The notes beneath the pieces were generated by a model. The model worked only from the letters and a program-made list of their open reading frames with translations, searched no databases and was not told the DNA's origin. Below are positions 5,248 through 63,250 of a DNA stretch of 64,000 nucleotides, in pieces. Source of the DNA: a plasmid. Position 1 is the stretch's first letter, and every line of letters begins with the position of its first letter. A program made the translations under genes and the position numbers. The stretch is taken from sequence record NZ_CP139428.1. The stretch is one strand, 5' to 3'.

Positions 5248-5544
5248 ATGCAAACGGAAAATTTACGGGTATGCAGTACGGCACATTTTACATCGGAAGA
5301 TAACGAGCTGTTAGCGACAATGGCAGGGCAGGCGGGTCTTAGTTCCTGGGTGGTTAACATCCAGTACGGTTATATTCTGGTGCTGACGGATTATCGCTGG
5401 CGGCTGCGGGTATTAAAGTCGCAAGGAGCGTCAAAACCGCTGAGGCGGTTTCTAATTCACCAGATAAAATATCACCGTACAGGCTACATCCATTTTGATT
5501 GTGATGCATCCATTCTTGCCGGCCACGAGGTTTTTGAGTGGTAG
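5248..5544 (+). CDS. hypothetical protein
   Basis: 98-aa ORF with an RBS. Confidence 0.35.
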   Translation: MQTENLRVCSTAHFTSEDNELLATMAGQAGLSSWVVNIQYGYILVLTDYRWRLRVLKSQGASKPLRRFLIHQIKYHRTGYIHFDCDASILAGHEVFEW

Positions 5545-5831
5545 CGCGCTGATAAGAGTCGTCCCCATCGAGGGGGCGTCTCTTATTCTCCCCGCCCGCC
5601 CAGCGGGAAATAAATTTCCCGCTCCCGCTGCCCCAAAGGGGCGCCCTGGTTAGCACCCAAAAAACGGTAACGTTTTTTGGTGGTGTTCGTTAACTTTGCG
5701 ATCCGCTTACCCACATCTACACAATCGACGTTATTTCACCTTGCCCCGGTGAAATAACCGCTCCCGTTCGTTTCCCATTAAGGGGAATGGGAAACCTCAC
5801 TGGCTTTGTCTTATGTGCATATGTGGATAAA

Positions 5832-6302
5832 CTACGGGTTCTGGACGAGGAGGGGTTGCTGCTTGCTGGCTTTTATCGCCCGGTAGGTCTTTTCGATTTT
5901 GCGTGCATACTTATAACGTCGTTGCGCCTGCTTAGGCGAATCTTTAAATCCTGCATTATAAGCCCCCACTGCCTGCCAGGTCGCTCCCCACTTCTTAAAG
6001 GCAATCGCGAGATAATAAGCACCGGTGTAGATGTTCATGCACGGATCTTGCTTCAGGTGACGTTCTGAAACCCCAATCGATGAGAGCGAGTTAAAGTGCT
6101 GGGAGTCAATTTGCATTAACCCGACGCCGTACCCTGTTGTAGGATTTGGGCCGATAGCCACGGGATTAAACCGTGACTCGTTCCATGAAATAGCACGCAG
6201 CAGATCCGGGTCGATGTGATAATCACGACCCGCCATGTCAAAACAATCAGCCATAGCGGCCGTTGAACTGAATAGCATTAACGCTGCGATGAGGTTCTTC
6301 AT
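5832..6302 (-). CDS. lytic transglycosylase (SLT domain; F geneX/orf169-like) adjacent to oriT
   Basis: Signal peptide. SLT motifs [11 protein letters not shown] and GLMQI. Sits where F has its oriT-adjacent orf169. Confidence 0.8.
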
Positions 6303-6721
6303 GGTATCCTTAAAATCCCTAGCCCTGGTGAAAATCTAGCCTTTTCGGGATCTCGAGTCAACAAATTCGCGCTCTTTGGGGTAACAGCATCACACCCCAC
6401 GCAAAATTGTATTTTTCAGAATTATTATTTTAAAACAGTTGGTTACGCGCTTTAAGTTGTTGTTGTATTTTTACATGGCAAGAGATTAGAGTTGTAAAGG
6501 ACTCTAACTAGAGTCGTTATTCAAGTTTATACACAACTCTACATAGAGTTATCACTAAATTTCAAATAGATAAACAGACTCGACCCTAGAGGCGAGTTGT
6601 ATTTTTTTGCTTTTATAGTTATCATTAGACTCGCAATTAGAGTCGGATTTGATTCGTGCATGCCAACTCAAAATACATACAGATTATCTGTCAGCTAATA
6701 ATGTCATGGAGTAAAAATTAT
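6303..6721. promoter_or_regulatory. oriT: oriT region: F-type nic motif on minus strand (rc TTTGCGTGGGGTGT|GATG, ~6388-6405) plus TAGAGT/ACTCTA repeat clusters (candidate TraM/TraY/IHF sites and traM promoters)
   Basis: 6388-6405 catcacaccccacgcaaa is the reverse complement of the F/R100 nic core TTTGCGTGGGGTGTG. Repeats at 6486-6520, 6536-6556, 6582-6604, 6628-6655. Confidence 0.7.
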
Positions 6722-7120
6722 ATGGCAAGAATTCAAGCATATGTCAGCAAGGAGGCGGTTGAAAAGATTCATGCAATTGTTGAACAGCGCCGTCAAGAAG
6801 GGGCTGCTGAAACTGAAGTAAGTACATCTAGTGTTATTTCTATGCTTCTTGAACTCGGTCTCAGAGTCTATGAGGCACAGATGGAAAGAAAAGATGACCC
6901 TTTTAATCAGACGGAGTTTAACAAAACTCTTTTGGAAAACGTATTGAAAACTCAACTTGCAATGGCAAAGGTTCTTGGTGCAAGTACTCTAGCTCCACAT
7001 GTTGCAGATAAACCAAAACTTAATAACTATCAGCAGATCATTTCAGAAATAAACGAATCTGTTAATGATAAGTTAGAGAGATTTTTTATTGGTGTTGATT
7101 CAGATAGTACTAACGAATGA
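6722..7120 (+). CDS. traM: TraM relaxosome accessory protein
   Basis: MARIQAYVSKEAVEKIHAIVEQRRQEGA...MLLELGLRVYEAQMERK aligns closely with F TraM. Confidence 0.9.
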   Translation: MARIQAYVSKEAVEKIHAIVEQRRQEGAAETEVSTSSVISMLLELGLRVYEAQMERKDDPFNQTEFNKTLLENVLKTQLAMAKVLGASTLAPHVADKPKLNNYQQIISEINESVNDKLERFFIGVDSDSTNE

Positions 7121-7186
7121 ACTATCATCAATAACTTAATTACCTCATGCCTCCTTTGGGAGTGAGGTAATTATGCTTGCTGATTT

Positions 7187-7549
7187 CTATTTGTTTAGAC
7201 AGTCAATTATTTCAATTGCTAGTCGTTTGGCATCTTCAACTTTTTTAGCTAATTTTTTCTCTTCTATTACTGAACTGTAGAATTTATTTTTGGAGGGATT
7301 TGTTCTGTTTCTATGCATTTCAAGAAGATCTGTCGCTAAATCATCATCTATCGTATAGAAGTAATACTCTGGGTAATCCAATAAGTTGGCTATTTTTACT
7401 ACTAAGCTGAAAGGTGGTTCTGTTCTGCCGACTTCGTAACTTGACAGTCTTGAGCTTGAATTGGCCCCTTGTATACCTACAAGTTCAGCTAACTGCTCCT
7501 GTGTATAACCACTTGATATTCTGGCATCTTTTAGTCTTTTTGGTATCAT
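7187..7549 (-). CDS. XRE-family HTH transcriptional regulator (Cro/CI-type), divergent from 7721 gene
   Basis: N-terminal HTH RLKDARISSGYTQEQLAELVGI. AT-rich. Confidence 0.7.
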   Translation of the reverse strand: MIPKRLKDARISSGYTQEQLAELVGIQGANSSSRLSSYEVGRTEPPFSLVVKIANLLDYPEYYFYTIDDDLATDLLEMHRNRTNPSKNKFYSSVIEEKKLAKKVEDAKRLAIEIIDCLNK

Positions 7550-7720
7550 GGTCCCCTCCTTTATTATGATTTTACATAGTGTTAGGAGGTGAAAAATCCA
7601 CATAATCAAGAACTGTTGATAATGTGTAGTTCATGCTGTGCTATGTTTATTTCATCATCTGATGTCTTTCATGTATCATCTTTTGACTAACCATCACTAT
7701 TATTTGATCATGAGTATGCC

Positions 7721-8317
7721 ATGAATAATACCGAGATAATAAAAAAGAATATAAATTACCTTCTTTCTTCGAGAAAGGAAACACAAGTTTCTTTGAGTGA
7801 TGGTGCCGGTGTTAATCGAACTACTATATATAAGATCCTTGAAGGTAGGGTAGAGCGCGTTCAAGAAAATACTCTTCGAAAAGTAGCCGGATTCTTTGGT
7901 GTTTCATTTAAAGAAATTCAATCTGTTGATTTACAAGAAAAGGAGTTATCTAATAAGTTAGTAACCATTGATGGTAACATGAACCCGTTGGCGGTTCCGA
8001 TTATTAAAGATACAACTATACTCTCAGCAGTAAATGCAAAAATTGGACGGTTAGTTATGTCGTCACCTATAACTTATTTCTTCGGTGAAGGTCCTAATGT
8101 AGTTGGAATACTTCTAACAAAAGAGATAAAAGGATACTATAATAAAGGTGATGTGATCATCGTTCGCCGTGAGGCTATCATTCATGAGGCAAATGTTCTT
8201 GTGGTTACTTCAAGCAAAAGTTTAAAGGTGATTGATGGTAGTTCGGCTCATTTAGTTGCTGAGGATGTTGTTGGTACAATAATCGAGGAAAGGTATGGAA
8301 GCGAATATAAAATATAA
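7721..8317 (+). CDS. CI/LexA-like repressor: N-terminal XRE HTH plus C-terminal S24-peptidase-like domain (catalytic Ser-Lys not evident)
   Basis: HTH block VSLSDGAGVNRTTIYKI. C-terminal KGDVIIVRRE...LVVTSSKSLKV resembles the LexA/UmuD beta-domain, but no GxSM motif is seen. Confidence 0.6.
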   Translation: MNNTEIIKKNINYLLSSRKETQVSLSDGAGVNRTTIYKILEGRVERVQENTLRKVAGFFGVSFKEIQSVDLQEKELSNKLVTIDGNMNPLAVPIIKDTTILSAVNAKIGRLVMSSPITYFFGEGPNVVGILLTKEIKGYYNKGDVIIVRREAIIHEANVLVVTSSKSLKVIDGSSAHLVAEDVVGTIIEERYGSEYKI

Positions 8318-9152
8318 GCTAATTGGATTTGATATCCTCAATGGAAAAGCTAACGTTATGGTGTTGAATACTGGGCGGGTTATGTCAATGCCATACGAAA
8401 GACTACTATCTTCAGAGGTGATTGATGATTTTAACGCTAGAGAAGTGTCGGCGGTTTGTCGAAAAATATATAGCTCTGGTGAAAGTGTTAAAACTGAATA
8501 TGAGTTTAAAGATAGAAATGAAAAGCAGTGGTTAACTTATGTTGCTTTTTGTTTGGTTATTAGTGTTTGTTATATATTTAGTAATATAGCTGCAGTCAAA
8601 CCAGTTCACATACAATACTTTGATCTTATCATTACGCCTGGTACTTTTGTTTACCCGTTTACATTCTTAGTAGTAGATCTTCTGAATGAATTTTATGGAT
8701 TTAGGCTGGCAAGAAAAGCCATCTATATGTGTGTTGTTGCTAATGCGGCAATATTAGGGTTGCTTTATGTTTCTCTGAAGTTACCTGTTATACCTGAATG
8801 GATATTCAATGGTCCATATAATAGCCTTATTAATCAAATACAATCAACATTTCTTGCATCAACTATAGCATTTCTTACCTCCGAGCTGGCTAATTCATAT
8901 GTGCTTTGTAAAATCAAAGAACTGACTAATTCTCGCTACTTATATATAAGGATTCTTTCCAGTATATTCGTGGCCTCTGTTATAGATAGTGTTGTCTTTT
9001 GTTTCATAGCTTTCAGTGGTTTGATGACAAACGAACAAATAATAGGAATTATCGCCGTTCAAGTAATAATTAAGTTAGCGTATGCACTTGTTAATGTTTT
9101 TCCTGCGTATGGAGCAAGGTATCTATTTAATAAATACCTCACTCAAGAATAA
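8295..9152 (+). CDS. yhhQ: YhhQ/DUF165 (Vut-family) queuosine-precursor (preQ0/preQ1) transporter with ~80-aa N-terminal soluble extension
   Basis: PGTFVYPFTFLVVDLLNEFYG and multi-TM profile match the YhhQ family. Overlaps the upstream repressor gene by 23 nt. Confidence 0.7.
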   Translation: MEANIKYKLIGFDILNGKANVMVLNTGRVMSMPYERLLSSEVIDDFNAREVSAVCRKIYSSGESVKTEYEFKDRNEKQWLTYVAFCLVISVCYIFSNIAAVKPVHIQYFDLIITPGTFVYPFTFLVVDLLNEFYGFRLARKAIYMCVVANAAILGLLYVSLKLPVIPEWIFNGPYNSLINQIQSTFLASTIAFLTSELANSYVLCKIKELTNSRYLYIRILSSIFVASVIDSVVFCFIAFSGLMTNEQIIGIIAVQVIIKLAYALVNVFPAYGARYLFNKYLTQE

Positions 9153-9163
9153 TATTTAATTAG

Positions 9164-9865
9164 TCATAAGGCCTGTTTTTTTTGCAGGCTTTTTTTTATT
9201 TCTTCTTTGTTTTGTACGTATTCATTAAACCCTCTCAATCGTAGAAAACATGCGTCGCATTTCCCACACCCAAAACTTTTAACTCCATTGTAACAAGTTA
9301 AAGTTTCATCTCTGATGAGTTCCAAACATCCCATATTGTCTGCTAATGCCCATGTTTCAGCTTTGTTTAATGACATTAGTGGCGTTACAAACTTGATATC
9401 TCTTCCTATTCCTAAACTTACTGCGTGGTTTAACGCTTTCACAAAAACATCACGGCAGTCCGGGTATCCTGAAAAATCAGTCTCACAAACACCTGTTATT
9501 ACGTCTTTCGCATTTACTTGAAATGCATAGATGGCGGCAAGGGTAAGGAATACGATGTTTCTGCCAGGAACAAACGTTGATGGTATTCCATCCGAATCAG
9601 CATTTTTGTGCTCGGGCACTTCAATCTCATTTCTAGTCAAACTACTTATTGCTAACTCATTGATTACATTAACATCTAGAATTTTATGTGAGCTTACGTT
9701 TAGCTTCTTTGCAAGTTGCTCCGCTATTTTAATTTCTTCACTGTGGCGCTGGCCGTAGTCGAAGGTTAAACAGTGCACGGAGTCATACTCAGCGAGAGCC
9801 TTCACTAAGCATGTAGTTGAATCTTGACCTCCACTGAATACAACTACTGCTGTTTTTCCTGACAT
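9164..9865 (-). CDS. queC: 7-cyano-7-deazaguanine synthase QueC
   Basis: [59 protein letters not shown]-terminal Zn Cys cluster [16 protein letters not shown]. ~65% identity to E. coli QueC from memory. Confidence 0.9.
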
Positions 9866-10248
9866 ATAAACTCCTTATTATTCAATTCGATGAAATTAAA
9901 AAGCATCATATGGTGCGTTTTGTGTTGCTTTGTTGTTGGATGTATTCTACAGTTTCATTGTTTTAGTTCAATCAGTCAAACCATTGGTAGCTGTAGAAGG
10001 TCATCTCGTAGAACAAATACATCACACTCATACCGCGAGATTAAGCTTTAATCTAATGATTTTATTGTTTTTTTTTGTGATTTGACTTCAGGTGGTTACA
10101 TCAAAAACAGCTTATTTTTTATCAAAATATCTTTAATTTTCATAATGTAAGGGGGTGCTTCCAACTGTTCAAATAATCTCATTTCATACTAAGCCAAGGA
10201 TGTTTCTCTATTGCATCCAAAGATTTACCTCATTCAAGGATAATTTAA

Positions 10249-10617
10249 ATGAATGCTTCATTAAGCGCTCAGGGGCCTTCTGTTGCCCAACGTCAGGGAT
10301 TTTCACTTCGTAAGCTGTTTTCTCGGCAACGCGTCGTGAATTTCCTCAAGGTGATCCTGCCGTTTGCCGTACTGGCCTCGTTCTTCCCGGAAGTGGCTCT
10401 CGCCGCCGGTGCTGGCGGTAAGGATATGCTGAAATCCGGCGATGCCGATGTGAAGGCAACGGCAGGCTCCGGTTCCACCATGGTCAAATGGATCGTCCTG
10501 GTCGAAGTGTTGGTTGGTGCCGTGATGTATATGGCCACCAAAAACCTTAAATACCTCTCCGGCTTCATCGTGGTCTCTGTTCTGATCGCGGTGGGGATGA
10601 AAGTCGCCGGGTATTAA
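10249..10617 (+). CDS. traA: F-type propilin TraA
   Basis: 122 aa. Leader plus mature pilin [21 protein letters not shown] aligns with F TraA. Confidence 0.9.
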
Positions 10618-10628
10618 TCGGGGGCGGT

Positions 10629-10934
10629 ATGTCGGGAAACGATCTGAATAAATACCGTTTCCCGAAAACACTGAGAACACAAGACCGCTGGTTTGGGTTT
10701 TGTCTTGATGAATTAATCCCCGTGGCTATTACTGGCGGCTGGTTTATCTGGCAGCAGAAATATATCACGGGGATTATTTTGGCGGCGCTGGTGTTCTGGG
10801 CCATTCACAAAGCCAAAAAGGGGAAGGGCAGTAGCTGGCTGCGTGACCTTGCATATTGGTATTTACCGACCTCGCTCGGCAAAGGTGTCTACAAGGTCGT
10901 CCCTGAATCGTGTTTTCGGAAATGGATAAAATAG
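10629..10934 (+). CDS. traL: TraL pilus assembly protein
   Basis: MSG...RFP...FC.DE..PV...YLPTSL...VPESCFR matches TraL. Confidence 0.85.
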
Positions 10935-10944
10935 GCAGGCGATA

Positions 10945-11508
10945 ATGGAACACTCAGCACGTCTCAACTCAAATCGTATTATTGCCATCGGCTTTATTGT
11001 CATGGCGCTGTTGATTGCTGCGCTGACGGTGGCCGTCATTATCATGGCTATCAACAACTATCGCCTGCAGAACGAAAAACAGGTGGTGGCAGTTCCCATG
11101 TTGTTCAAGGCGCCGTTCGGCGTCTCTCAAAACAGCGCTGATGCATCGTATCTCGAGCAAATGGCGCTCTCCTTTGTCGCGTTACGTCTCAATGTGACCC
11201 CTGAGACGGTCAACGCCTCACATTCCACCCTGCTCATGATGGTCAAGCCGGCGGCGCAAAACGCCCTCAAAATCGTCCTGGCAGAAGAAGCCAACCGTAT
11301 CCGAGCCAGCAACGTCAATGCGGCTTTCTTCCAGACCAGCGTGAAAGTCTATCCCGCCCAGGGGCGTGTTGATATTCGCGGTGAGCTGCGTACCTGGATC
11401 GGTGACAGCGCCCCGGAAAAAGCCCTCAAGCACTACTCCCTTTATATCGATCGCAGCGAGGGTGTGACCTGGCTGGCCAAGTTCGTCGAGGTAAACGATG
11501 AAAACTAA
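10945..11508 (+). CDS. traE: TraE pilus assembly protein
   Basis: Position in the F gene order, size, N-terminal TM. Confidence 0.8.
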   Translation: MEHSARLNSNRIIAIGFIVMALLIAALTVAVIIMAINNYRLQNEKQVVAVPMLFKAPFGVSQNSADASYLEQMALSFVALRLNVTPETVNASHSTLLMMVKPAAQNALKIVLAEEANRIRASNVNAAFFQTSVKVYPAQGRVDIRGELRTWIGDSAPEKALKHYSLYIDRSEGVTWLAKFVEVNDEN

Positions 11509-41018: not shown

Positions 41019-41279
41019 ATGTTACTAACCGCTTCGCACTTTGCCCAGGCCTCGTTACTTGACCAGGTGACGATCGCCACGGCCGCGGGGCGCGTTGTCC
41101 GCTTTACCGATATGATGGCTTTTGGTAGAGTGGGAAAAATTTTGCATTCGATGGTTGTCCACGCCAGAAGGTGGACGGGATGGAGCGGAGCTCCAGACGC
41201 AAAAACCCCCGGATTACGCATGAACTTTGGTCGGTACGCGCGTAAATCCGGGGGTCACAAGCAGGCCTGCCGCCTGTAA
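41019..41279 (+). CDS. hypothetical protein (not FinO)
   Basis: 86-aa ORF. Confidence 0.25.
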   Translation: MLLTASHFAQASLLDQVTIATAAGRVVRFTDMMAFGRVGKILHSMVVHARRWTGWSGAPDAKTPGLRMNFGRYARKSGGHKQACRL

Positions 41280-41329
41280 GGAAGTATACTGTATGCGTAT
41301 CCTACGTCAATCCCCCCTGCCGACCCTAA

Positions 41330-42430
41330 GTGCAGGGGAACGTGCATAGTCAAAATGCCGCGCAGGTAAATCCTGTAAAATCAACCATTTCACGCCGTGG
41401 TGCCAATAATGCGCAGCGGCGCGGGCAACAAAAAATTCATCGTCGTTACACCCCAAACCTGTGCTGCCGGGTGCCGAAGGGCATGGCGAGCAAGGTGGTG
41501 GCGCGCATGAGCAGCCACGACTGGCGGCGCAATGATGACCTGATCGGCCTGCGCCGGCAGGGTTATATCCCTTATACCCAACGCAACAATCCGGACTACC
41601 GTCCCAAACCGATGCGTATTGCTGCGCGTTCGGAAAGCCGCGAGGCGCTGACGGTGCTCTCGATGGTGCTGGGCGCCAACTGCGACTACAACCCGGACAG
41701 CGACTACCCGTTCGAGATCATGCTGCCGTTCGAGGACGTGGCCAAAGCGATGGGGGTGCTGCACGTCTACGAAAGCGGCCGCAAGGCGTATGACGTGGCG
41801 TTGCATGCGCTGTCGGTGCTCGAGCAGCTGGACTACCTCATCGTGTCGCGCGGGCAGGATACTGACACCGGTCAGAACAAGCCACTGCGCATCTGGTTGA
41901 CGGAGAACTTCTTCACCAGTCGCGGCATCCAGGTGGACGAAATTCGCCAGTGGCTGAATCAGTACCGGCTGTGGGCGATTAAAAACGGCCTGACCGAAAC
42001 GCTCAGGCAAAAATACGAGCGCCACCTGGTGCGCATCGCGCATCTGGGGATCGACATCGAGCGCAAGCACTCGCTGAAAAACCGGCTGAAAAAGATCCGG
42101 CGCTGGGTAGTGAGCCCCGATCTGCAAAACCTCAAGCGCAACGCGGAGCAGGTGATTGGCAACGAACTGGCCAGGCGGCAGCAGAACGAGCAGCGGTTGG
42201 ATACGTTGCTGGATGACACCGCTGCCGGCATCAAAAAACTGGCCACCGCCCGGCGCCAGAAGCAGAACGGCTTTTATCAGGCCTGGGTGCAGTGGACGAT
42301 GGGCAGCTCGCCGCTGAAGGCGATGCAGCTGGAGAATACGCTCAAGCATGAACAGCCCGGACTGCTGAACAGCGATCCGGAGGCGTTCTATCGCTTGCTG
42401 CTGGAGCGCGCCGGCGCTATCCCCGCCTAA
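41330..42430 (+). CDS. repA: IncFII-type RepA-like replication initiator (start codon uncertain)
   Basis: Position downstream of traX as in F-like replicons. Architecture and basic C-terminus resemble RepA1. Confidence 0.5.
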   Translation: MQGNVHSQNAAQVNPVKSTISRRGANNAQRRGQQKIHRRYTPNLCCRVPKGMASKVVARMSSHDWRRNDDLIGLRRQGYIPYTQRNNPDYRPKPMRIAARSESREALTVLSMVLGANCDYNPDSDYPFEIMLPFEDVAKAMGVLHVYESGRKAYDVALHALSVLEQLDYLIVSRGQDTDTGQNKPLRIWLTENFFTSRGIQVDEIRQWLNQYRLWAIKNGLTETLRQKYERHLVRIAHLGIDIERKHSLKNRLKKIRRWVVSPDLQNLKRNAEQVIGNELARRQQNEQRLDTLLDDTAAGIKKLATARRQKQNGFYQAWVQWTMGSSPLKAMQLENTLKHEQPGLLNSDPEAFYRLLLERAGAIPA

Positions 42431-46226: not shown

Positions 46227-46304
46227 TTACAGCGTGTGAATGGCGTGGCGCACCACGCCGAAGATCACGGTTTCGATGTCGTCGCCGAGCGGAATGGGCG
46301 CAAA
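46227..46304 (-). pseudogene. umuD: umuD C-terminal fragment (separated from N-part by transposon)
   Basis: Reverse-complement translation FAPIPLGDDIETVIFGVVRHAIHTL* matches the UmuD C-terminus. Abuts the IR. Confidence 0.75.
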
Positions 46305-46493
46305 GGGGGAACCGCAGAATTCGGAAAAAATCGTACGCTAAGCTAACGGTGTTCTCGTGACAGCTCTTTGACTAGGCTTTCTAAGGCCATTCTGATAGCC
46401 CTGACTTCCTGAAAAGCCATGGCTAAAATTTGTGCGGCTAAAAGGGATAACCGATGGTAAAGTAAGTTATCCCTGTCGAGATACTGAAAAGCG

Positions 46494-47539
46494 TTATCCT
46501 CGTTTTTCCCAAAACTGTTTTGCCAGTTCGCTCAGAGCGCTAGTTAACTGAGCGACAGATTTCGCACTTTGCAAATTATTCTGCCCGGTCTGTACATTGG
46601 TATCAGCAGCATCGCGTATATTGATAATACTGCGGTTTATGTCTTCACTTACTGCTCCCTGCTGCTCGACCGCAGTCGCTATTTGCGCGTTCATGTCGGT
46701 AATTTCGTTAACGCGTTGGCCAATTCCATCAAGAGCTGTAGCTGCTTCCTCTGCGTGAGCTACACTCGTGTGCGCTTGCCGACTACTTTGCTCCATGACT
46801 GTAACAGCGGATTGCGCTCGCTCTTGTAGAGCGCTGATCATGCTTTGAATATCCGTTGTCGATTGCTGTGTGCGAGCAGCAAGACTGCGAACCTCATCGG
46901 CGACAACAGCAAAACCACGCCCCTGCTCACCAGCACGCGCGGCCTCAATTGCTGCGTTGAGTGCCAACAAATTCGTTTGCTCGGCGATCCCTCGTATAAC
47001 GTCAAGAACTTTTGATATCTCGTTACTTTGACCTTCAAGCTCATGAATAACCTGAGTGGCTTGCCTAATTTCACCTTCAAGGGCAGTGATTGACTGGCTT
47101 GTGTGGGCTACCAGACGCTGGCCAGATGCCGTCTCAGTGTCTGCTCTTCCGGCCGCATCTGCAGCATGCTGTGCATTGCTCGCAACCTCTTGAATGCTTG
47201 CCACCATTTGGTTTACTGCCGTTGCTATTTGATCTGTCTCTGCCTGCTGCTCAACTGTAAGTACATTGCTTGACTCAATATCCTTTAGTAGGCCTCGGGT
47301 GTGTTCGCTAAGCCGATTTGATGCATCACCTATGCGACCTACTATGGCGCCTGTTTCAGCTTGCATCATTCGTAAAGCAAACTCTATTTGGCCAAACTCA
47401 TCGGTGCGCCCAGTGTAGAGGGATTGACTTAATGGGTTATTGGAAATATTCCTGGCTCTTTCAACCAGTCTTCCAAGAGGAGAGAGAATAGCCAAAACAC
47501 TAACAGAGCTTAAGCTTCCTGACATTAAAGTGGCTAACA
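46494..47539 (-). pseudogene. mcp: methyl-accepting chemotaxis protein (Tn1721 orfI-like mcp), C-terminal portion cut by ISEcp1
   Basis: MCP signalling domain. Reading frame ends at the ISEcp1 IRL. Confidence 0.7.
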
Positions 47540-49195
47540 CCTAGATTCTACGTCAGTACTTCAAAAAGCATAATCAAAGCCTTGATAAATATGCATTCCT
47601 TCGAAATTCAGCTTTCACCCATTGGGTGAAAGAAAAGTGCTCAAAAATATGTTAAATTATCAGCTTTTATGACTCGATATATGGTAAAATAATAGTAAGA
47701 AAAGTAGTAAAAAGGGGTTCTAATTATGATTAATAAAATTGATTTCAAAGCTAAGAATCTAACATCAAATGCAGGTCTTTTTCTGCTCCTTGAGAATGCA
47801 AAAAGCAATGGGATTTTTGATTTTATTGAAAATGACCTCGTATTTGATAATGACTCAACAAATAAAATCAAGATGAATCATATAAAGACCATGCTCTGCG
47901 GTCACTTCATTGGCATTGATAAGTTAGAACGTCTAAAGCTACTTCAAAATGATCCCCTCGTCAACGAGTTTGATATTTCCGTAAAAGAACCTGAAACAGT
48001 GTCACGGTTTCTAGGAAACTTCAACTTCAAGACAACCCAAATGTTTAGAGACATTAATTTTAAAGTCTTTAAAAAACTGCTCACTAAAAGTAAATTGACA
48101 TCCATTACGATTGATATTGATAGTAGTGTAATTAACGTAGAAGGTCATCAAGAAGGTGCGTCAAAAGGATATAATCCTAAGAAACTGGGAAACCGATGCT
48201 ACAATATCCAATTTGCATTTTGCGACGAATTAAAAGCATATGTTACCGGATTTGTAAGAAGTGGCAATACTTACACTGCAAACGGTGCTGCGGAAATGAT
48301 CAAAGAAATTGTTGCTAACATCAAATCAGACGATTTAGAAATTTTATTTCGAATGGATAGTGGCTACTTTGATGAAAAAATTATCGAAACGATAGAATCT
48401 CTTGGATGCAAATATTTAATTAAAGCCAAAAGTTATTCTACACTCACCTCACAAGCAACGAATTCATCAATTGTATTCGTTAAAGGAGAAGAAGGTAGAG
48501 AAACTACAGAACTGTATACAAAATTAGTTAAATGGGAAAAAGACAGAAGATTTGTCGTATCTCGCGTACTGAAACCAGAAAAAGAAAGAGCACAATTATC
48601 ACTTTTAGAAGGTTCCGAATACGACTACTTTTTCTTTGTAACAAATACTACCTTGCTTTCTGAAAAAGTAGTTATATACTATGAAAAGCGTGGTAATGCT
48701 GAAAACTATATCAAAGAAGCCAAATACGACATGGCGGTGGGTCATCTCTTGCTAAAGTCATTTTGGGCGAATGAAGCCGTGTTTCAAATGATGATGCTTT
48801 CATATAACCTATTTTTGTTGTTCAAGTTTGATTCCTTGGACTCTTCAGAATACAGACAGCAAATAAAGACCTTTCGTTTGAAGTATGTATTTCTTGCAGC
48901 AAAAATAATCAAAACCGCAAGATATGTAATCATGAAGTTGTCGGAAAACTATCCGTACAAGGGAGTGTATGAAAAATGTCTGGTATAATAAGAATATCAT
49001 CAATAAAATTGAGTGTTGCTCTGTGGATAACTTGCAGAGTTTATTAAGTATCATTGCAGCAAAGATGAAATCAATGATTTATCAAAAATGATTGAAAGGT
49101 GGTTGTAAATAATGTTACAATGTGTGAGAAGCAGTCTAAATTCTTCGTGAAATAGTGATTTTTGAAGCTAATAAAAAACACACGTGGAATTTAGG
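47540..49195 (+). mobile_element. ISEcp1 (IS1380 family)
   Basis: IRL CCTAGATTCTACGTCAGTACTTCAAAAAGC at 47540. IRR ...ACACACGTGGAATTTAGG ends 42 bp before the bla start codon. Confidence 0.85.
47726..48988 (+). CDS. tnpA: ISEcp1 transposase
   Basis: 420-aa IS1380-family transposase. AT-rich. Confidence 0.9.
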   Translation: MINKIDFKAKNLTSNAGLFLLLENAKSNGIFDFIENDLVFDNDSTNKIKMNHIKTMLCGHFIGIDKLERLKLLQNDPLVNEFDISVKEPETVSRFLGNFNFKTTQMFRDINFKVFKKLLTKSKLTSITIDIDSSVINVEGHQEGASKGYNPKKLGNRCYNIQFAFCDELKAYVTGFVRSGNTYTANGAAEMIKEIVANIKSDDLEILFRMDSGYFDEKIIETIESLGCKYLIKAKSYSTLTSQATNSSIVFVKGEEGRETTELYTKLVKWEKDRRFVVSRVLKPEKERAQLSLLEGSEYDYFFFVTNTTLLSEKVVIYYEKRGNAENYIKEAKYDMAVGHLLLKSFWANEAVFQMMMLSYNLFLLFKFDSLDSSEYRQQIKTFRLKYVFLAAKIIKTARYVIMKLSENYPYKGVYEKCLV

Positions 49196-49219
49196 GAATA
49201 CTGATGTAACACGGATTGA

Positions 49220-50113
<894 letters not shown>

Positions 50114-50115
50114 CT

Positions 50116-51172
50116 GGTTTTGTTGAATAAATCGAACTTTTGCTGAGTTGAAGGATCAGATCACGTATCTTCCCGACAACGCAGACCGTTCCGTGGCAAA
50201 GCAAAAGTTCAAAATCACCAACTGGCCCACCTACAATAAAGCCCTCATCAACCGTGGCTCCATAACTTTCTGGCTGGATGATGAAGCTATTCAGGCCTGG
50301 TATGAGTCAGCAACACCTTCTTCACGAGGCAGACCTCAGCGCTATTCTGACCTTGCCATCACGACTGTGCTGGTCATTAAACGCGTATTCAGGCTGACCC
50401 TGCGCGCTGCGCAGGGCTTTATTGATTCCATTTTTTCTCTGATGAACGTTCCGCTACGCTGCCCGGATTACAGCTGTGTCAGCAGGCGGGCAAAGTCGGT
50501 TAATATCAGTTTCAAAACGCCCACCCGGGGTGAAATCGCACACCTGGTAATTGATTCCACCGGGCTGAAGGTCTTCGGTGAAGGCGAGTGGAAAGTCAAA
50601 AAGCATGGCCAGGAACGCCGTCGTATATGGCGTAAGCTGCATCTGGCAGTTGACAGTAAAACACATGAAATCATCTGCGCTGACCTGTCGCTGAACAACG
50701 TTACGGACTCAGAGGCCTTCCCCGGGTTAATCCGGCAAACCCACCGGAAAATCAGGTCAGCCGCCGCCGATGGAGCTTACGATACCCGGCTCTGTCACGA
50801 TGAACTGCGGCGTAAGAAAATCAGCGCGCTTATCCCGCCCCGAAAAGGTGCGGGTTACTGGCCCGGTGAATATGCAGACCGTAACCGTGCAGTGGCTAAT
50901 CAGCGAATGACCGGGAGTAATGCGCGGTGGAAATGGACAACAGATTACAACCGTCGCTCGATAGCGGAAACGGCGATGTACCGGGTAAAACAGCTGTTCG
51001 GGGGTTCACTGACGCTGCGTGACTACGATGGTCAGGTTGCGGAGGCTATGGCCCTGGTACGAGCGCTGAACAAAATGACGAAAGCAGGTATGCCTGAAAG
51101 CGTGCGTATTGCCTGAAAACACAACCCGCTACGGGGGAGACTTACCCGAAATCTGATTTATTCAACAAAGCC
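50116..51172. mobile_element. IS903 (IS5 family), 1057 bp
   Basis: Terminal IRs GGTTTTGTTGAATAAATC / GATTTATTCAACAAAGCC. Confidence 0.85.
50148..51116 (+). CDS. tnpA: IS903 transposase
   Basis: 322-aa IS5-family DDE transposase. Confidence 0.9.
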   Translation: MKDQITYLPDNADRSVAKQKFKITNWPTYNKALINRGSITFWLDDEAIQAWYESATPSSRGRPQRYSDLAITTVLVIKRVFRLTLRAAQGFIDSIFSLMNVPLRCPDYSCVSRRAKSVNISFKTPTRGEIAHLVIDSTGLKVFGEGEWKVKKHGQERRRIWRKLHLAVDSKTHEIICADLSLNNVTDSEAFPGLIRQTHRKIRSAAADGAYDTRLCHDELRRKKISALIPPRKGAGYWPGEYADRNRAVANQRMTGSNARWKWTTDYNRRSIAETAMYRVKQLFGGSLTLRDYDGQVAEAMALVRALNKMTKAGMPESVRIA

Positions 51173-52270
51173 ACGCGCTGGACACACCACGATGACAGCG
51201 GTTTTATCCCTTACGCCATCACCACCGGCCTTGATTACGAGGCGATGACCGAACAGCGCAAAGGCTATGAGAACTTTGTTTATCAGAACGGCGTTTACGA
51301 TCTCGGCACCAAAGGTGATATGCGACGTAACGAACGTAACCTGATGTGGAACCTCGATCCCTACATTCAAACGCACTGGCAGCTCACCTCAGCCCTGGGG
51401 CTGGACGCCGGGGCGCGCTATAGCTCGGTATGGTTTGATTCCAACGATCGTTATGTTGTAGGTAAAAATGGTGATGATAGCGGCGAAGCGAGCTATCACA
51501 AGTGGCTTCCGGCGGCAGCGCTGAAGTATGCCATGACGCCGCAGTGGAACGTTTACCTCTCTGCCGGGAGGGGATTTGAAACGCCGACCATTAACGAGCT
51601 GTCCTATCGTCCCGATGGTCAGTCCGGGCTTAACTTTGCTCTGCAACCGGCCACTAACACCACCGTTGAAGCAGGCAGTAAATGGCAGGTGGGCACCGGG
51701 ATGGCGAGCCTGAGCGTCTTCAATACGGACACGAAAAATGAAATTGTCGTTGCCGCCAGCGACAATGGCCGTACGTCCTATCAGAACGCGGGCAAGACGC
51801 GCCGCCGCGGGGTCGAACTGGGATGGGATCAGCAATTTGCGCCCGCCTGGCGCGCCAAACTGGCGTGGACGCTGCTGGATGCGACCTACCGTGAAAACGC
51901 CGGCGATGCTATTCAGAGCGGCAATCGGATCCCGGGGATTGCACGTAATAGCGCCTATGCCTCCTTTGGCTGGGTGCCGGAAGAGGGATGGTACGCTGGC
52001 GCTGAAGTCCGCTATATGAGCGATATTCAGGTCAACGATGCCAATAGCGAGCAGGCTCCAGCCTATACGGTGACGGCACTGAATACCGGCTATAAATATG
52101 TGCTAGATAACTGGACCGTCGACCTCTATACGCGCGTTGATAACCTGTTTGATAAGCGCTACGTCGGCTCTGTTATCGTCAACGAGAGCAACGGACGCTA
52201 TTATGAACCGGCGCCGGGCCGTAACTATGGCGTTGGGCTATCGGTCAGCTATCAGTTTGATTCGCTGTAA
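51173..52270 (+). pseudogene. iroN: truncated TonB-dependent siderophore receptor (iroN-like 3' fragment)
   Basis: C-terminal beta-barrel ending ...SYQFDSL. No N-terminal plug or signal. Usual partner of ISEcp1-blaCTX-M-14-IS903. Confidence 0.7.
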
Positions 52271-52289
52271 CAATACGGCTGCCGGAGAG

Positions 52290-52874
52290 TGCTATTGAGG
52301 TGAGGCTCCGGCAGCGGGTAAAGGCGTTGATTCCTGGTAACAATAAGCTGCTTATTGATGTATCAGTAAGCATGCCGGCAGCCATTGCGCTTGATATAAT
52401 ACTACCCCATATGAGCAAGAGTATTTTCACGGAAAAGCTAGCAGCCAATTTCGGCCTCGCGGCCTTCCCGCTTCTCAATTGAGCATATAATTTTTCCGCA
52501 GCCAAAACCTGCTCAGGTTCAGGCTTGGTCCTTACAGACTGGTATTCAACAATCGAACCATTCTTAGCTATTGGCGTTACATAAGCACTTACCCAATAGT
52601 GGTCGCCATTTTTACAGCGATTTTTTACTAGCCCCATCCATGAGCGGCCAGATTTTAATGTACTCCACATATGCTCAAATGCAGCAGGCGGCATATCTGG
52701 GTGTCTTACGATGTTGTGAGGCTGGCCTAATAGTTCTTCCTCAGTGAAACCACTGATTTTAATGAAGTCAGGATTAACGTACGTGATATGGCTTTGAGGG
52801 GAGGTAGTCGAAAGAATATTGGCATCTTTTGGGAGTTCTAAGTTTCGACCCGTCACTGGTAAATTCTGGCGCAT
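52290..52874 (-). pseudogene. mcp: mcp N-terminal PAS-domain portion (Aer-like), 3' end lost to the ISEcp1 unit
   Basis: HITYVNPDFIKISGFTEEELLGQPHNIVRHPDMP is an Aer-type PAS domain. The 3' boundary is approximate. Confidence 0.65.
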
Positions 52875-52899
52875 AAGAACCTCAAGGGTTGGCTGTTTT

Positions 52900-53183
52900 A
52901 TTTTATTGTTTTCGGCATTAAGCCCAATTTCTTGAGCGTTACGATAAAGCTAGCATGGAAACGATAGGTGCAAGCAAGTTAAGGGTTGCATCGCGCATGT
53001 CAATCTAGGCTATACCCTAACTTGATGTCAGGCAGGGCCGCGCCGCTTCGTCAGAATAGAGTCTGCTTTCCCATTTTTTGACACATGCCCGCGAAGGTTA
53101 TAGATTTCAGCCTGACAGAAATGGGCTTTGAGGCACAACGGAACAGAAAGTGCACTTAAGCCGCCTTCAACCAAGGAGACATC
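52900..53183. promoter_or_regulatory. probable res site / divergent promoters between mcp and tnpR
   Basis: Position by analogy to Tn21/Tn1721. Subsites not mapped. Confidence 0.4.
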
Positions 53184-53744
53184 GTGCAGGGGCACCGCAT
53201 CGGCTACGTCCGGGTCAGCAGCTTTGACCAGAACCCGGAACGCCAGCTGGAACAAACCCAGGTGAGCAAGGTGTTCACCGACAAGGCATCGGGCAAGGAC
53301 ACCCAGCGCCCCCAGCTCGAAGCGCTGCTGAGCTTCGTCCGCGAAGGCGATACAGTGGTGGTGCACAGCATGGATCGGCTGGCCCGCAACCTCGATGACC
53401 TGCGTCGCTTGGTACAGAAGCTGACTCAGCGCGGCGTGCGCATCGAGTTCCTGAAGGAGGGCCTGGTGTTCACTGGCGAGGACTCGCCGATGGCCAACCT
53501 GATGCTGTCGGTGATGGGGGCCTTCGCTGAGTTCGAGCGCGCCCTGATCCGCGAGCGGCAGCGTGAGGGCATCGCCTTGGCCAAGCAGCGTGGCGCGTAC
53601 CGGGGCCGCAAGAAAGCCCTGTCCGATGAGCAGGCTGCTACCCTGCGGCAGCGAGCGACGGCCGGCGAGCCCAAGGCGCAGCTTGCCCGCGAGTTCAACA
53701 TCAGCCGGGAAACCCTCTACCAGTACCTCCGCACGGACGACTGA
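53184..53744 (+). CDS. tnpR: Tn3-family serine resolvase TnpR
   Basis: GYVRVSSFDQNPERQ catalytic Ser. C-terminal HTH. Confidence 0.9.
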   Translation: MQGHRIGYVRVSSFDQNPERQLEQTQVSKVFTDKASGKDTQRPQLEALLSFVREGDTVVVHSMDRLARNLDDLRRLVQKLTQRGVRIEFLKEGLVFTGEDSPMANLMLSVMGAFAEFERALIRERQREGIALAKQRGAYRGRKKALSDEQAATLRQRATAGEPKAQLAREFNISRETLYQYLRTDD

Positions 53745-53747
53745 CAC

Positions 53748-56714
53748 ATGCCGCGTCGCTTGATCCTCTCGGCCACGGAGCGGGACACCCTGCTTGCGCT
53801 GCCGGAAAGCCAGGATGACCTGATCCGCTACTACACCTTCAACGACTCCGACCTGTCGCTGATCCGCCAGCGACGCGGCGACGCCAACCGCCTCGGCTTC
53901 GCCGTGCAGCTCTGCCTGCTGCGCTACCCCGGTTACGCGCTGGGAACCGACAGCGAGCTGCCCGAGCCGGTCATCCTGTGGGTGGCGAAGCAAGTCCAGG
54001 CCGAGCCGGCGAGCTGGGCAAAGTACGGCGAGCGCGACGTGACCCGTCGCGAGCATGCCCAGGAACTGCGCACCTACCTGCAACTGGCCCCGTTCGGCCT
54101 GTCCGACTTCCGCGCCCTGGTGCGCGAGCTAACCGAGCTGGCCCAGCAGACCGACAAAGGCTTGCTGCTGGCCGGTCAGGCCCTGGAGAGCCTACGGCAG
54201 AAACGACGCATCCTGCCGGCGCTGAGCGTGATTGACCGGGCCTGCTCGGAAGCCATTGCGCGAGCCAATCGGCGGGTCTACCGCGCCCTGGTCGAACCAC
54301 TCACGGACTCGCATCGGGCCAAGCTGGACGAGCTGTTGAAGCTCAAGGCCGGCAGCAGCATCACCTGGTTGACCTGGCTGCGCCAGGCACCGCTGAAACC
54401 CAACTCTCGGCACATGCTGGAACACATCGAGCGGCTGAAGACATTTCAGTTGGTGGACTTGCCCGAAGGCCTGGGCCGGCACATCCACCAGAACCGCCTG
54501 CTCAAGCTGGCCCGCGAGGGTGGGCAGATGACGCCCAAAGACCTCGGTAAGTTCGAGCCGCAGCGCCGCTACGCGACCCTGGCCGCCGTGGTGCTGGAGA
54601 GCACCGCGACCGTGATCGATGAGCTGGTCGATCTGCATGACCGCATCCTGGTCAAGCTGTTCAGCGGCGCGAAGCACAAGCATCAGCAGCAGTTCCAGAA
54701 GCAGGGCAAGGCGATCAACGACAAGGTGCGCCTGTACTCCAGGATCGGCCAGGCGCTGCTGGAAGCGAAGGAAAGCGGCAGCGACCCCTATGCCGCCATC
54801 GAGGCGGTGATTCCCTGGGACGAGTTCACCGAGAGCGTCAGCGAGGCCGAGCTGCTGGCCCGGCCGGAAGGCTTCGACCACCTGCACCTGGTCGGCGAGA
54901 ACTTCGCCACCCTGCGCCGTTACACGCCGGCCTTGCTGGAGGTGCTGGAACTGCGCGCCGCGCCGGCCGCGCAAGGCGTGCTGGCAGCCGTGCAGACCCT
55001 GCGTGAGATGAACGCCGACAACCTGCGCAAGGTGCCGGCCGATGCACCCACGGCCTTCATCAAGCCGCGCTGGAAGCCGCTGGTGATCACCCCGGAAGGC
55101 CTCGACCGGAAATTCTACGAAATCTGCGCCCTGTCCGAGCTGAAGAACGCCCTGCGCTCCGGCGACATCTGGGTCAAGGGCTCGCGGCAGTTCCGCGACT
55201 TCGACGACTACCTGCTGCCGGCCGAGAAGTTCGCCGCACTCAAGCGCGAGCAGGCCCTGCCCCTGGCGATCAACCCGAACAGCGACCAGTACCTGGAAGA
55301 GCGTTTGCAGCTGCTGGACGAGCAGTTGGCCACCGTCACCCGCCTGGCCAAGGACAACGAGCTGCCCGATGCCATCCTCACCGAGTCAGGGCTGAAAATC
55401 ACCCCGCTGGATGCGGCGGTGCCGGATCGGGCGCAGGCGCTGATCGACCAAACCAGCCAGTTACTGCCGCGCATCAAGATCACCGAACTGCTGATGGACG
55501 TGGACGACTGGACGGGCTTCAGCCGCCACTTCACCCACTTGAAGGACGGGGCCGAGGCCAAAGACAGGACGTTGCTGCTGTCCGCAATCCTCGGTGATGC
55601 GATCAACCTCGGGCTGACCAAGATGGCCGAGTCGAGCCCCGGCCTGACCTACGCCAAGCTGTCCTGGCTGCAAGCCTGGCACATCCGCGACGAAACCTAT
55701 TCGGCGGCCTTGGCCGAGCTGGTCAACCACCAGTATCGCCACGCCTTTGCCGCCCACTGGGGCGACGGCACGACCTCATCCTCCGATGGCCAGCGCTTCC
55801 GCGCGGGTGGCCGGGGCGAGAGCACCGGGCACGTCAACCCGAAGTACGGTAGCGAGCCGGGACGGCTGTTCTATACCCATATCTCCGACCAGTACGCGCC
55901 GTTCAGCACCCGCGTGGTGAATGTCGGCGTCCGCGATTCCACCTATGTGCTCGACGGCCTGCTGTACCACGAGTCCGACCTGCGGATCGAGGAGCACTAC
56001 ACCGACACGGCCGGCTTCACCGATCACGTCTTTGCCCTGATGCACCTGCTAGGCTTCCGCTTCGCGCCGCGCATCCGCGACCTCGGCGAAACCAAGCTGT
56101 ACGTGCCGCAGGGCGTGCAAGCCTACCCGACGTTGCGCCCGCTGATCGGCGGCACCCTGAACATCAAGCACGTGCGTGCCCACTGGGACGACATCCTGCG
56201 CCTGGCCAGCTCGATCAAGCAGGGCACCGTCACCGCCTCGCTGATGCTGCGCAAGCTCGGCAGCTACCCGCGCCAGAACGGACTGGCCGTGGCCCTGCGC
56301 GAGCTGGGCCGGATCGAGCGCACGCTGTTCATCCTGGACTGGCTGCAAAGTGTTGAACTGCGCCGCCGCGTGCATGCCGGCCTGAACAAAGGTGAGGCGC
56401 GCAACTCGCTGGCCAGGGCGGTGTTCTTCAACCGCCTTGGGGAAATCAGGGATCGGAGCTTCGAGCAGCAGCGCTACCGGGCCAGCGGCCTCAACCTGGT
56501 GACGGCGGCTATCGTGCTGTGGAACACGGTGTACCTGGAACGCGCCACCCAGGGGTTGGTCGAGGCCGGCAAGCCGGTGGACGGCGAGCTGCTGCAATTC
56601 CTGTCGCCGCTGGGCTGGGAGCACATCAACCTAACCGGCGATTACGTCTGGCGGCAGAGCCGCAGACTGGAAGACGGGAAGTTTCGGCCCTTACGGATGC
56701 CCGGAAAACCTTAG
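53748..56714 (+). CDS. tnpA: Tn3-family transposase TnpA
   Basis: 988 aa. Ends in the IRR. Confidence 0.9.
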
Positions 56715-56747
56715 CGTACGATTTTTTCCGAATTCTGCGGGCTCCCC

Positions 56748-57058
56748 GCAAAGGCCGGATTGGCCGGCATCAGCATCGGCCGGGGCAGCAGCTGCAGGCG
56801 CTTGCAGGTGAACTCGCCGTCGACGGTGGCGATGACGATGTCGCCGTGCTGCGCCCGGTAGAAACACTCCACGACCAGCAGGTCGCCGTCGAGGATACCT
56901 GCGTCCTGCATCGATTGCCCCTCGGCGCGCACCAGGTAGGTGCTTTCCGGGTGGCGGATGCAGATGTCGTCCAACGACAGGCGCTGCTCGAGGTAGTCCT
57001 GCGCCGGCGACGGAAACCCGCAGGGCACGCCGGCGTCATAGAAGCGTACCGGCATCAC
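56748..57058 (-). pseudogene. umuD: umuD N-terminal part (S24 peptidase region), fused in frame into transposon IR
   Basis: CGFPSPAQDYLEQ...AEGQSMQDAGILDGDLLVV...TCKRLQL = UmuD Ser/Lys dyad region. The frame runs into the IR (..[11 protein letters not shown]). Confidence 0.8.
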
Positions 57059-60025: not shown

Positions 60026-60116
60026 CGTGGTATCGTAGCATGATCCCTCATTTCGCCCTACTCTCGGTGAAGCGGCTGATATCCTCACCGTTCCTGAACC
60101 GGCGCCGGCCCAGCGA

Positions 60117-62625: not shown

Positions 62626-62626
62626 G

Positions 62627-63250
62627 TTATAATTTCCTTAGCTTCATTGTCCCAAAGGTATTCCGACCTCTGCCATTAAAATACTCACCATCAGCAGTTG
62701 TCAGGTTCTTATCAAAAGTTAATTCTGCAAACCCCATATGTGGGCTTAACTCTTTTTCGTTTATTCTCGGATCATTTCTGTAGTTGTAAACTAACCGATA
62801 ACCTATTTCGCCATCATATATGATAGAGGCAGCTATACTGTCAGAACCTGACTGTGAGGTTTGCAACCGTATATGAACCTTATCCCATGACTGGAATATG
62901 TTGATCTTAGCTTTCCATGAAAAAACGTCTCCTTCCTTGTTTTCGCCGCGCCCTTCACAATCCCACTCTCCCGACAGATCCGGGACGTTAATAATTCTTG
63001 AAATTAACTTCCACTTCCATAACCTTGAGTCAAAAATCCAGTAGAGAACTAGATACATTGTCCCTGCACTAACGAGTGAGGATACTGTTGGGGTCATTAC
63101 AGATTTCGCTTCAATATAAGAATGGCTTTCAAGGTAACTTAAAATAAAAAAGACCAGAAGCCCTGATATTAGAGAAGCCAAGGAGCCAATTATTTTACCT
63201 ACCTTGCTCCTGTTAAAACCGCTTATAACAATATATTCATGGCTTTTCAT
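62627..63250 (-). CDS. 2-TM membrane protein with beta-rich C-terminal domain (Cap15/SLATT-like putative effector)
   Basis: Two N-terminal TM helices plus ~120-aa soluble domain. 1-nt gap to the NTase gene. Confidence 0.45.
   Translation of the reverse strand: MKSHEYIVISGFNRSKVGKIIGSLASLISGLLVFFILSYLESHSYIEAKSVMTPTVSSLVSAGTMYLVLYWIFDSRLWKWKLISRIINVPDLSGEWDCEGRGENKEGDVFSWKAKINIFQSWDKVHIRLQTSQSGSDSIAASIIYDGEIGYRLVYNYRNDPRINEKELSPHMGFAELTFDKNLTTADGEYFNGRGRNTFGTMKLRKL

Follow-up and report, generated by a model that had tools for sequence, protein, structure and literature searches.

How does an F-like plasmid control its own transfer when the canonical regulators are missing from between traM and traA? 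How conjugation is switched on has been worked out in a few model plasmids only, and most F-like plasmids outside the classical TraJ/FinOP group still lack a known regulator. We examined this question in a 64,000-nucleotide stretch of the plasmid record NZ_CP139428.1 (the window), from a Serratia plasmid of the F-like (MOBF/MPF_F) kind. Its traM-traA slot carries two helix-turn-helix (HTH) regulators, XRE120 and HTH198, a YhhQ-type membrane protein, VUT285, and the queuosine gene queC. HTH198 and VUT285 proved to be a gene pair that also stands, in other plasmids, at the head of pilus and type IV secretion system (T4SS) operons. We give an even chance to the reading that a salvage cassette has been recruited here as a ligand-gated regulator of transfer. 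The features of the slot are as follows.

6722..7120, + strand: traM, relaxosome protein (Pfam Tra_M 2.8e-51; NCBIfam PRK13713 173 bits)
7064..10236: low-GC exchangeable segment of 3.17 kb (35.1% GC, against 59% for traL-traB)
7137..7173: perfect inverted repeat in the gap where traM and XRE120 converge (arms of 11 nt, 100% complementary)
7187..7549, - strand: XRE120, small Cro/C-protein-like HTH regulator (Pfam HTH_3 8.5e-12)
7550..7720: control region from which XRE120 and HTH198 diverge (promoter-like hexamers, short direct repeats)
7721..8317, + strand: HTH198 (Cro/C1-type HTH_26 5e-6)
8295..9152, + strand: VUT285, YhhQ/QPTR-family (COG1738) membrane protein (Vut_1 6e-37)
8295..8534, + strand: N-terminal soluble domain of VUT285, ~75-80 aa
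9164..9865, - strand: queC, canonical 7-cyano-7-deazaguanine synthase, convergent with VUT285
9168..9192: terminator-like GC-rich hairpin followed by a T run (promoter/terminator scan)
9866..10248: queC-traA spacer, 383 bp, AT-rich (31% GC), without coding potential
10249..10617, + strand: traA, F-type pilin (Pfam TraA 2.4e-32)

The open reading frames (ORFs) of two regulators, a VUT protein and queC lie between traM and traA at the coordinates first given for them, and the first-pass annotation's observation that traJ, finP and traY are missing from the slot also held, with tblastn, Rfam and ORF assignment in agreement. No TraY homologue was detected by tblastn anywhere in the window. Six-frame translation of the 383-bp spacer, which carries indels among relatives, gave no ribbon-helix-helix-like ORF and no conserved ORF in which TraY could be hidden. 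The slot ORFs were all assigned to families other than traJ, and neither traJ nor traY is annotated in the relatives described below as variant A. Rfam searches found no FinP, preQ1 riboswitch or other known RNA in 5500-11000 or in 11 related loci. The set of TraJ, FinP and TraY homologues that defines the F circuit is thus not present between traM and traA. The best matches to the window were 21 Serratia plasmids, and the whole 6600-10700 arrangement is common to 8 Serratia plasmids at 87-99% identity (variant A), with no match in E. coli genomes. In the window traA is the first gene of the pilus/mating pair formation (Mpf) operon and is followed by traL, traE, traK and traB. The inverted repeat at 7137..7173 is probably the terminator for both traM and XRE120. 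Just past the VUT285 stop, the hairpin at 9168..9192 overlaps the 3' terminus of queC, and it appears terminator-like for the HTH-VUT transcript.

VUT285 matched the models Vut_1 (PF02592; 127.7 bits, cutoff 27.2) and TIGR00697 (98.6 bits, cutoff 50.95), but reached only 42.6 bits against the E. coli-type YhhQ equivalog NF008406 (cutoff 252). Its membrane part has a well-conserved fold like that of energy-coupling factor (ECF) S-components, and the gene is linked to queuosine genes. The ~80-aa N-terminal soluble extension noted in the first-pass annotation is indeed a domain, of ~75 aa, conserved over a subfamily of 412 proteins (E <= 1e-10) and in a subfamily alignment; it is modelled as three beta strands and two helices (AlphaFold2 pLDDT 75-88). 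Amongst 1.84 billion representatives its 23 matches were nearly confined to the N-termini of VUT-type proteins or fragments (one weak outlier), and the domain was not found in other protein architectures. These features point to a distinct QPTR subfamily with an N-terminal extension. Like E. coli YhhQ/QPTR (PMC5372724, PMC11130926), VUT285 combines the Vut_1 and TIGR00697 matches with an S-component-like fold and linkage to queuosine genes. It differs in its ~75-aa cytoplasmic N-terminal domain, its co-translated ~198-aa CI-type HTH partner, the lack of a preQ1 riboswitch and a substrate that is putative only. Steady linkage to queC or queF, a fold of the transporter type and membership of this family together make import of a 7-deazaguanine precursor the sound baseline reading of its role.

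HTH198 consists of an N-terminal Cro/C1-type HTH and a conserved beta-rich C-terminal domain. It had been labelled a CI/LexA-like repressor, a description that fits its DNA-binding HTH domain and not the rest of the protein. HTH198 gave no match to Peptidase_S24 (PF00717), the domain of LexA and lambda CI that carries the Ala-Gly cleavage site and Ser-Lys dyad. In an hhalign comparison with lambda CI the HTH part aligned and nothing else did, and the C-terminal half of the wider HTH alignment held no invariant Ser or Lys. The proposed translational coupling to VUT285 was confirmed, with a 23-nt overlap of the two ORFs. The HTH198 protein is identical in 5 plasmids despite 3-8 synonymous changes.

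The plasmid QueC is of the canonical type, scoring 390.9 bits against NF008317 (cutoff 378) and 273.5 bits against TIGR00364, with intact PP-loop (SGGQDS) and zinc-cysteine (CGKCDAC) motifs. It is 64.5% identical to 2PG3, the solved structure of a chromosomal QueC from Pectobacterium, in line with the ~65% first estimated; the accompanying ~35% GC applies to the whole segment, queC itself having 39%. Two relatives carry 1-nt insertions in the last ~70 nt of queC, past the catalytic motifs. We did not rely on these as a sign that queC is dispensable on plasmids, since the two frameshifted copies may be sequencing errors.

We then looked at the genomic distribution of the pair. The survey took one genome per species, and the best 80 of 155 loci were analysed (66 Pseudomonas, 12 Xenorhabdus, 1 Serratia rubidaea and 1 Sodalis). 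An HTH gene of ~198 aa lay directly upstream of the extended VUT gene and in the same orientation in all 80 loci (full length in 78), and a full-length convergent queC followed the pair in 58. By gene order and overlap, HTH and extended VUT thus form an obligate, translationally coupled pair. In Pseudomonas the three-gene cassette is an islet of 40% GC in metabolic surroundings of 60-65% GC, and the chromosomal copies of Pseudomonas, Xenorhabdus and Vibrio alike sit among metabolic genes without T4SS neighbours. The combination of HTH, VUT and queC is not a plasmid novelty, being a pre-existing low-GC cassette on dozens of Pseudomonas chromosomes. Elsewhere queF takes the place of queC (Serratia JSRIV006, Arsenophonus, Cedecea and a Vibrio chromid), whilst Xenorhabdus and the Vibrio Trb plasmids have no que gene beside the pair. 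Regulated uptake of a 7-deazaguanine precursor is the best reading of the pair's basic role. The cassette's substrate may differ from those known, and it is speculative that 7-carboxy-7-deazaguanine or 7-amido-7-deazaguanine is imported and then converted by QueC. We found no description of the cassette in papers on the QPTR or QueC families. Its parts belong to known families (QPTR/YhhQ, canonical QueC and XRE/Cro-C1 HTH); as a unit of HTH, extended QPTR and QueC or QueF it appears to be undescribed, widespread and horizontally mobile.

Two further observations concern the cassette. On a Cedecea neteri megaplasmid four co-directional genes encode HTH, VUT, QueF and the guanine deaminase GuaD, and the same replicon holds a second, partly decayed copy with queC; the guaD version suggests a wider processing of deazapurines or purine analogues. 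In 37 of the 58 Pseudomonas loci a motif around AATGCAGGAAGCA is conserved ~230 nt upstream of the cassette queC or at its start. The HTH promoter region does not have this motif, which may be a promoter, a leader or a mis-set start codon.

In plasmids with transfer genes, the HTH-VUT pair was at the head of a pilus or T4SS operon in all cases examined:

F-type heads: variant A; variant B; pE13; Serratia JSRIV006; an Enterobacter IncFII contig
Trb/P-type heads: Vibrio ED002 p2; V. owensii; V. parahaemolyticus pVPSD2016-4
VirB-type heads: Arsenophonus paNv_CAN7 and paNv_CH4; Serratia pE36_3
Remnants of a type IVB pilus operon: S. symbiotica

Plasmid pVPSD2016-4 came from a shrimp infected with acute hepatopancreatic necrosis disease (AHPND). 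Plasmid or chromid copies away from a T4SS were on replicons with none nearby (the Cedecea megaplasmid and Vibrio chromosome 2). In the IncFII contig, from Enterobacter asburiae, a 196-aa HTH gene (HTH196) overlaps the traM stop codon and is followed by VUT285 and a convergent queC; this queC is preceded by a second CI-like regulator of 199 aa, divergent from a NusG/RfaH-like gene. The locus looks like a hybrid of the cassette with a T4SS operon head of the XRE/NusG type. JSRIV006 has two traY-domain genes with an Rfam group II intron domain match between them (40.6 bits, cutoff 40), which is probably spurious.

The segment containing the pair is exchanged between plasmids. It holds all the regulatory and accessory genes of the slot, and BLASTN against plasmids with other contents placed its breakpoints at 7053/7063, in the 3' end of traM, and at 10236/10237, 12 nt 5' of the traA ATG; the final ~60 nt of traM thus fall within the variable part. 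Outside the segment, on both sides, identity between the window and the sister Serratia plasmids is 92-97%. The 383-bp spacer, up to 10236, was found in variant A only. In variant B the slot has a divergent HTH194 and VUT278 on the opposite strand, plus traY. VUT278 and VUT285 are full-length homologues, N-terminal domain included, with ~21% identity, and the HTH and VUT alleles swapped within the Serratia slot are ~20% identical. Variant C (PWN146p1) has a VUT protein of 220 aa without the N-terminal domain and a metallophosphoesterase 3' of traM, together with a Peptidase_S24 CI-like regulator (6e-7), only distantly related to HTH198, and a 162-aa protein divergent from traY. Its slot resembles a SetR-like, possibly SOS-responsive version. 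That the 162-aa protein is a free-standing VUT N-terminal domain was ruled out (hhalign probability 0.2%).

The idea that the slot had been replaced was to be judged on relatives with a normal traJ-traY, and these go half against it. In near-identical backbones traY is present in some slot variants, being absent from variant A, whilst traJ is in none of them, and HTH and VUT genes are found there too. By this comparison the recurrent element of the slot is an HTH regulator with a VUT membrane protein and not the loss of traY. The block from traM to the spacer also occurs with traA/traL alleles just 74-80% identical, indicating that it moves by recombination as a unit. A similar exchange was seen in two Vibrio Trb plasmids with backbones 93-98% identical, which differ precisely by ~170 bp of upstream promoter region, HTH and VUT; the exchanged VUT proteins are 22% identical. 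Such swaps in Serratia and Vibrio are the pattern expected of a regulatory module that bears specificity, as in a phage immunity region or traJ/finP alleles, and not of metabolic cargo. The traJ slot has already been reported to vary between F-like groups (TraJV, EntFR), and the content found here is not described (PMC5102898).

XRE120 was not part of the HTH-VUT cassette in other genomes. It matched the PADLOC 'control protein' profile of restriction-modification systems (1e-21), and its family is present in 353 plasmid records. Relatives 54-60% identical in pMET-1 and pRHBSTW-00464_3 (pMET-1-type) are divergent from operons that open with a NusG/RfaH-like gene and continue with virB1, virB2 and virB3/4. 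XRE120 is a separate recruit, from a family found at T4SS operon heads. XRE120 (-) and HTH198 (+) are divergent HTH genes with a conserved shared control region, as in a CI/Cro switch. This 171-bp spacer (7550-7720) is 96.4-100% conserved in variant A, above the flanking coding DNA. It contains a promoter-like site at 7683-7711 (+), a 21-nt tandem at 7622-7663 and TCCACATAAT, which is also in the spacer of one XRE relative; the direct and inverted repeats there are weak, with no perfect palindrome. Measured against the most divergent variant-A plasmid (S. proteamaculans), the ratio of nonsynonymous to synonymous substitution rates (dN/dS) was 0.015 for VUT285, 0.049 for HTH198, 0.066 for XRE120 and 0.069 for traM. 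HTH198, VUT285 and XRE120 are under strong purifying selection.

Taken together, the position and exchange of the module hint, without proof, at a functional link with transfer that comes wholly from comparative genomics. Gene content, pairing, linkage to queC or queF, position, allelic exchange and selection are seen in the sequences; ligand, DNA targets and any effect on transfer are inferred. VUT285 would bind and import preQ0, preQ1 or another 7-deazaguanine as a queuosine precursor. HTH198, as cognate repressor, would control their common operon in response to this ligand, detected by its C-terminal beta domain, by the N-terminal domain of VUT285, or by both. On chromosomes the unit would serve substrate-regulated salvage only. 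In conjugative plasmids it would have been recruited to the head of the pilus operon, such that T4SS transcription follows the same signal. In variant A the XRE120/HTH198 divergent region would form a two-repressor switch, and XRE120 would take the part of TraJ/FinP/TraY by acting on a tra promoter within the 383 bp between queC and traA. By elimination, the tra promoter of variant A is placed in this spacer, which is particular to that variant; the queC promoter must also lie within it. Promoter-like sites occur there at 9971-9944 (-) and 10119-10146 (+), but such hexamers carry little weight, since their frequency in the region is not above that of shuffled sequence. The searches for TraY, FinP and a riboswitch were all negative, and there is no other candidate tra regulator in the slot. 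A bolder version strikes us as rather doubtful: that the extended QPTR and CI-type HTH are a portable import-and-sense switch, acting as master regulator of transfer in F-, Trb- and VirB-type plasmids, with an extracellular 7-deazaguanine signal, immunity-like allelic specificity and direct signalling from the N-terminal domain to the repressor.

Recruitment for transfer control has to be weighed against passenger cargo, the main rival and a possible explanation that in our judgement falls short of probable. The module would then be a self-regulated salvage cassette of metabolic benefit to host or plasmid, lodged in a permissive, AT-rich, non-essential and recombination-prone gap, with tra transcription run by XRE120 alone, by host factors, or constitutively. 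Several observations weigh on this side and against recruitment. F-type Tra or VirB4/TrbE proteins were encoded within 8 kb in none of the 80 species-level loci, and chromosomal copies without a T4SS imply that the basic function is independent of conjugation. Linkage to queC, queF and guaD and the metabolic neighbourhoods of the Pseudomonas, Xenorhabdus and Vibrio copies are what cargo would show, and que genes are known as plain cargo on the symbiosis integrative and conjugative elements of Mesorhizobium (PMC8627217). The position in plasmids could itself reflect permissive, promoter-proximal AT-rich DNA. In the window HTH198-VUT285 is not divergent from traA, with queC and the terminator-like hairpin in between. 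The first-pass annotation had stressed a switch directly upstream of the pilin promoter; HTH198 is in fact not adjacent, and that the switch drives tra is something we infer. No operator shared by the XRE-HTH and queC-traA spacers was found by k-mer sharing, no conserved palindrome upstream of the HTH genes in 15 cassettes, and no motif common to the HTH-upstream and queC-upstream regions in 58 Pseudomonas cassettes. Ligand binding by the C-terminal domain of HTH198 is conjecture, as its fold is not assigned. Random placement, however, does not predict the heads of Mpf operons in ~12 independent plasmids with three or four T4SS types. Nor does cargo predict swaps at fixed breakpoints between ~20%-identical alleles in two unrelated plasmid families, or the co-transcription with traM in the Enterobacter contig. 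Enterobacterales generally carry chromosomal yhhQ and queC. With such host copies the plasmid genes would add little to metabolism, and still the dN/dS of VUT285 is 0.015. The earlier proposal of preQ-responsive transfer control thus gains comparative support from the F-, Trb- and VirB-type heads and from the XRE relatives at NusG-like-virB loci, and lacks it at the level of a shared operator. Experimental transfer of a variant-A plasmid could not be established from PMC12890329.

Two further explanations turn on queC. One, which we hold to be very improbable, is that the plasmid queC and transporter raise preQ0 for a DpdA/TGT-like enzyme encoded elsewhere, as an anti-restriction measure. 7-deazaguanine DNA modification systems are reported to use QueC and preQ0 (PMC6884629), and several genes for anti-restriction proteins and methyltransferases occur in the plasmid family. 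Against it, DpdA/TGT and the preQ0 synthesis genes that mark Dpd and phage modification were not found: neither the large ORFs of the window that had no assignment nor the annotated genes of one complete relative of 87 kb include tgt/dpdA, folE, queD or queE. PADLOC gave no Dpd or Qat match, the extended VUT was absent from 50,697 phage records, and in many copies the module has either queF, whose step takes the pathway away from preQ0, or lacks que genes. The first-pass annotation was thus right that the window lacks a TGT/DpdA homologue, and its overall interpretation is partly supported: the content of the slot holds, possible transfer control gains comparative support, and precursor supply for DNA modification is not supported. 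Equally hard to credit is a role in defence or addiction, with HTH and membrane protein as an abortive-infection or toxin-antitoxin-like pair and QueC as a QatC/Cap-like protein-modifying enzyme. Defence islands often contain XRE-HTH proteins paired with membrane proteins, Qat and type IV CBASS (cyclic oligonucleotide-based anti-phage signalling systems; PMC13082051) put QueC-family proteins to new use, and a CBASS lies elsewhere on this plasmid. QueC, though, is above the canonical equivalog cutoff and far below that of the QatC model (NF041925; 17 bits, cutoff 280), PADLOC matched it to the generic QueC model only, and no QatA, QatB or QatD neighbours were seen. PADLOC had no match to VUT285 and only a marginal HTH-domain match to HTH198 (E = 3.9e-4). 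The membrane domain has a conserved ECF S-component-type transporter fold under strong purifying selection.

If recruitment for transfer control is correct, how does it compare with known systems? As in the F plasmid, where TraJ, FinP-FinO and TraY control PY, the traM-traA slot is AT-rich and varies between groups (PMC5102898), but here the regulators are of the XRE/Cro-C1 HTH type and a membrane transporter and a queuosine enzyme stand within the block. Opine transport in Ti plasmids (AccR/OccR) and pheromone import in pCF10 (PrgX) follow a similar logic only, the protein families being unrelated; the signal proposed here is a 7-deazaguanine base, and its coupling to tra is deduced from gene position. 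Phage CI/Cro and SetR of SXT likewise have divergent HTH genes, a conserved control region and exchange of regulator plus promoter, whereas HTH198 is without a detectable S24 domain or dyad and no operator array was identified. The VirB heads with XRE and NusG/RfaH-like genes (PrfaH/ActX-type) share the XRE family of XRE120; they differ in that XRE120 has no NusG paralogue beside it and faces HTH198, not the T4SS operon. Dpd, phage 7-deazaguanine modification and QatABCD also place a QueC-family enzyme on a mobile element, but here it is of the canonical tRNA-pathway type and has no DpdA/TGT or Qat partner.

Other features were noted in the window outside the slot. A two-gene minimal CBASS at 61498-63250 (-) consists of a CD-NTase cyclase (PADLOC PDLC00772, 2e-147) and a Cap15-type effector with two transmembrane segments (Pfam Cap15_CD_rec 1e-37; PADLOC Effector 1e-82). 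A full-length RecA homologue is encoded at 57055-58164 (-; Pfam RecA 4.8e-131), adjoined by an Rpn/YhgA-like Transposase_31 gene at 59081-60145. Upstream of a rep ORF (41330-42430), Rfam identified a PK-repBA pseudoknot (41203-41327, 70.6 bits); this is replication control of the IncI/B/K type alongside F-type transfer, in keeping with the IncI1 typing of relatives. A resistance island at ~46300-56750 (ISEcp1, blaCTX-M-14, IS903B, TnAs1) matches plasmids of Klebsiella, E. coli and Raoultella at 100% identity; within or beside it are a truncated methyl-accepting chemotaxis protein gene (46494-47540) and a TonB-dependent receptor fragment (51245-52270).

We found no link of the cassette, or of queuosine precursors, to the control of conjugation in the searchable literature. 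The association spans several T4SS types and is directly testable. Even as cargo only, the locus would represent an undescribed mobile unit of 7-deazaguanine metabolism. If instead it regulates transfer, the missing regulator would be identified in a family of Serratia plasmids with KPC and CTX-M resistance genes and insect-virulence genes, and likewise in AHPND-type Vibrio plasmids and those of Arsenophonus. A vitamin-type transporter fold would then be used for signalling, and a shared precursor of tRNA modification would join opines, peptide pheromones and quorum signals as a new class of cue for conjugation.

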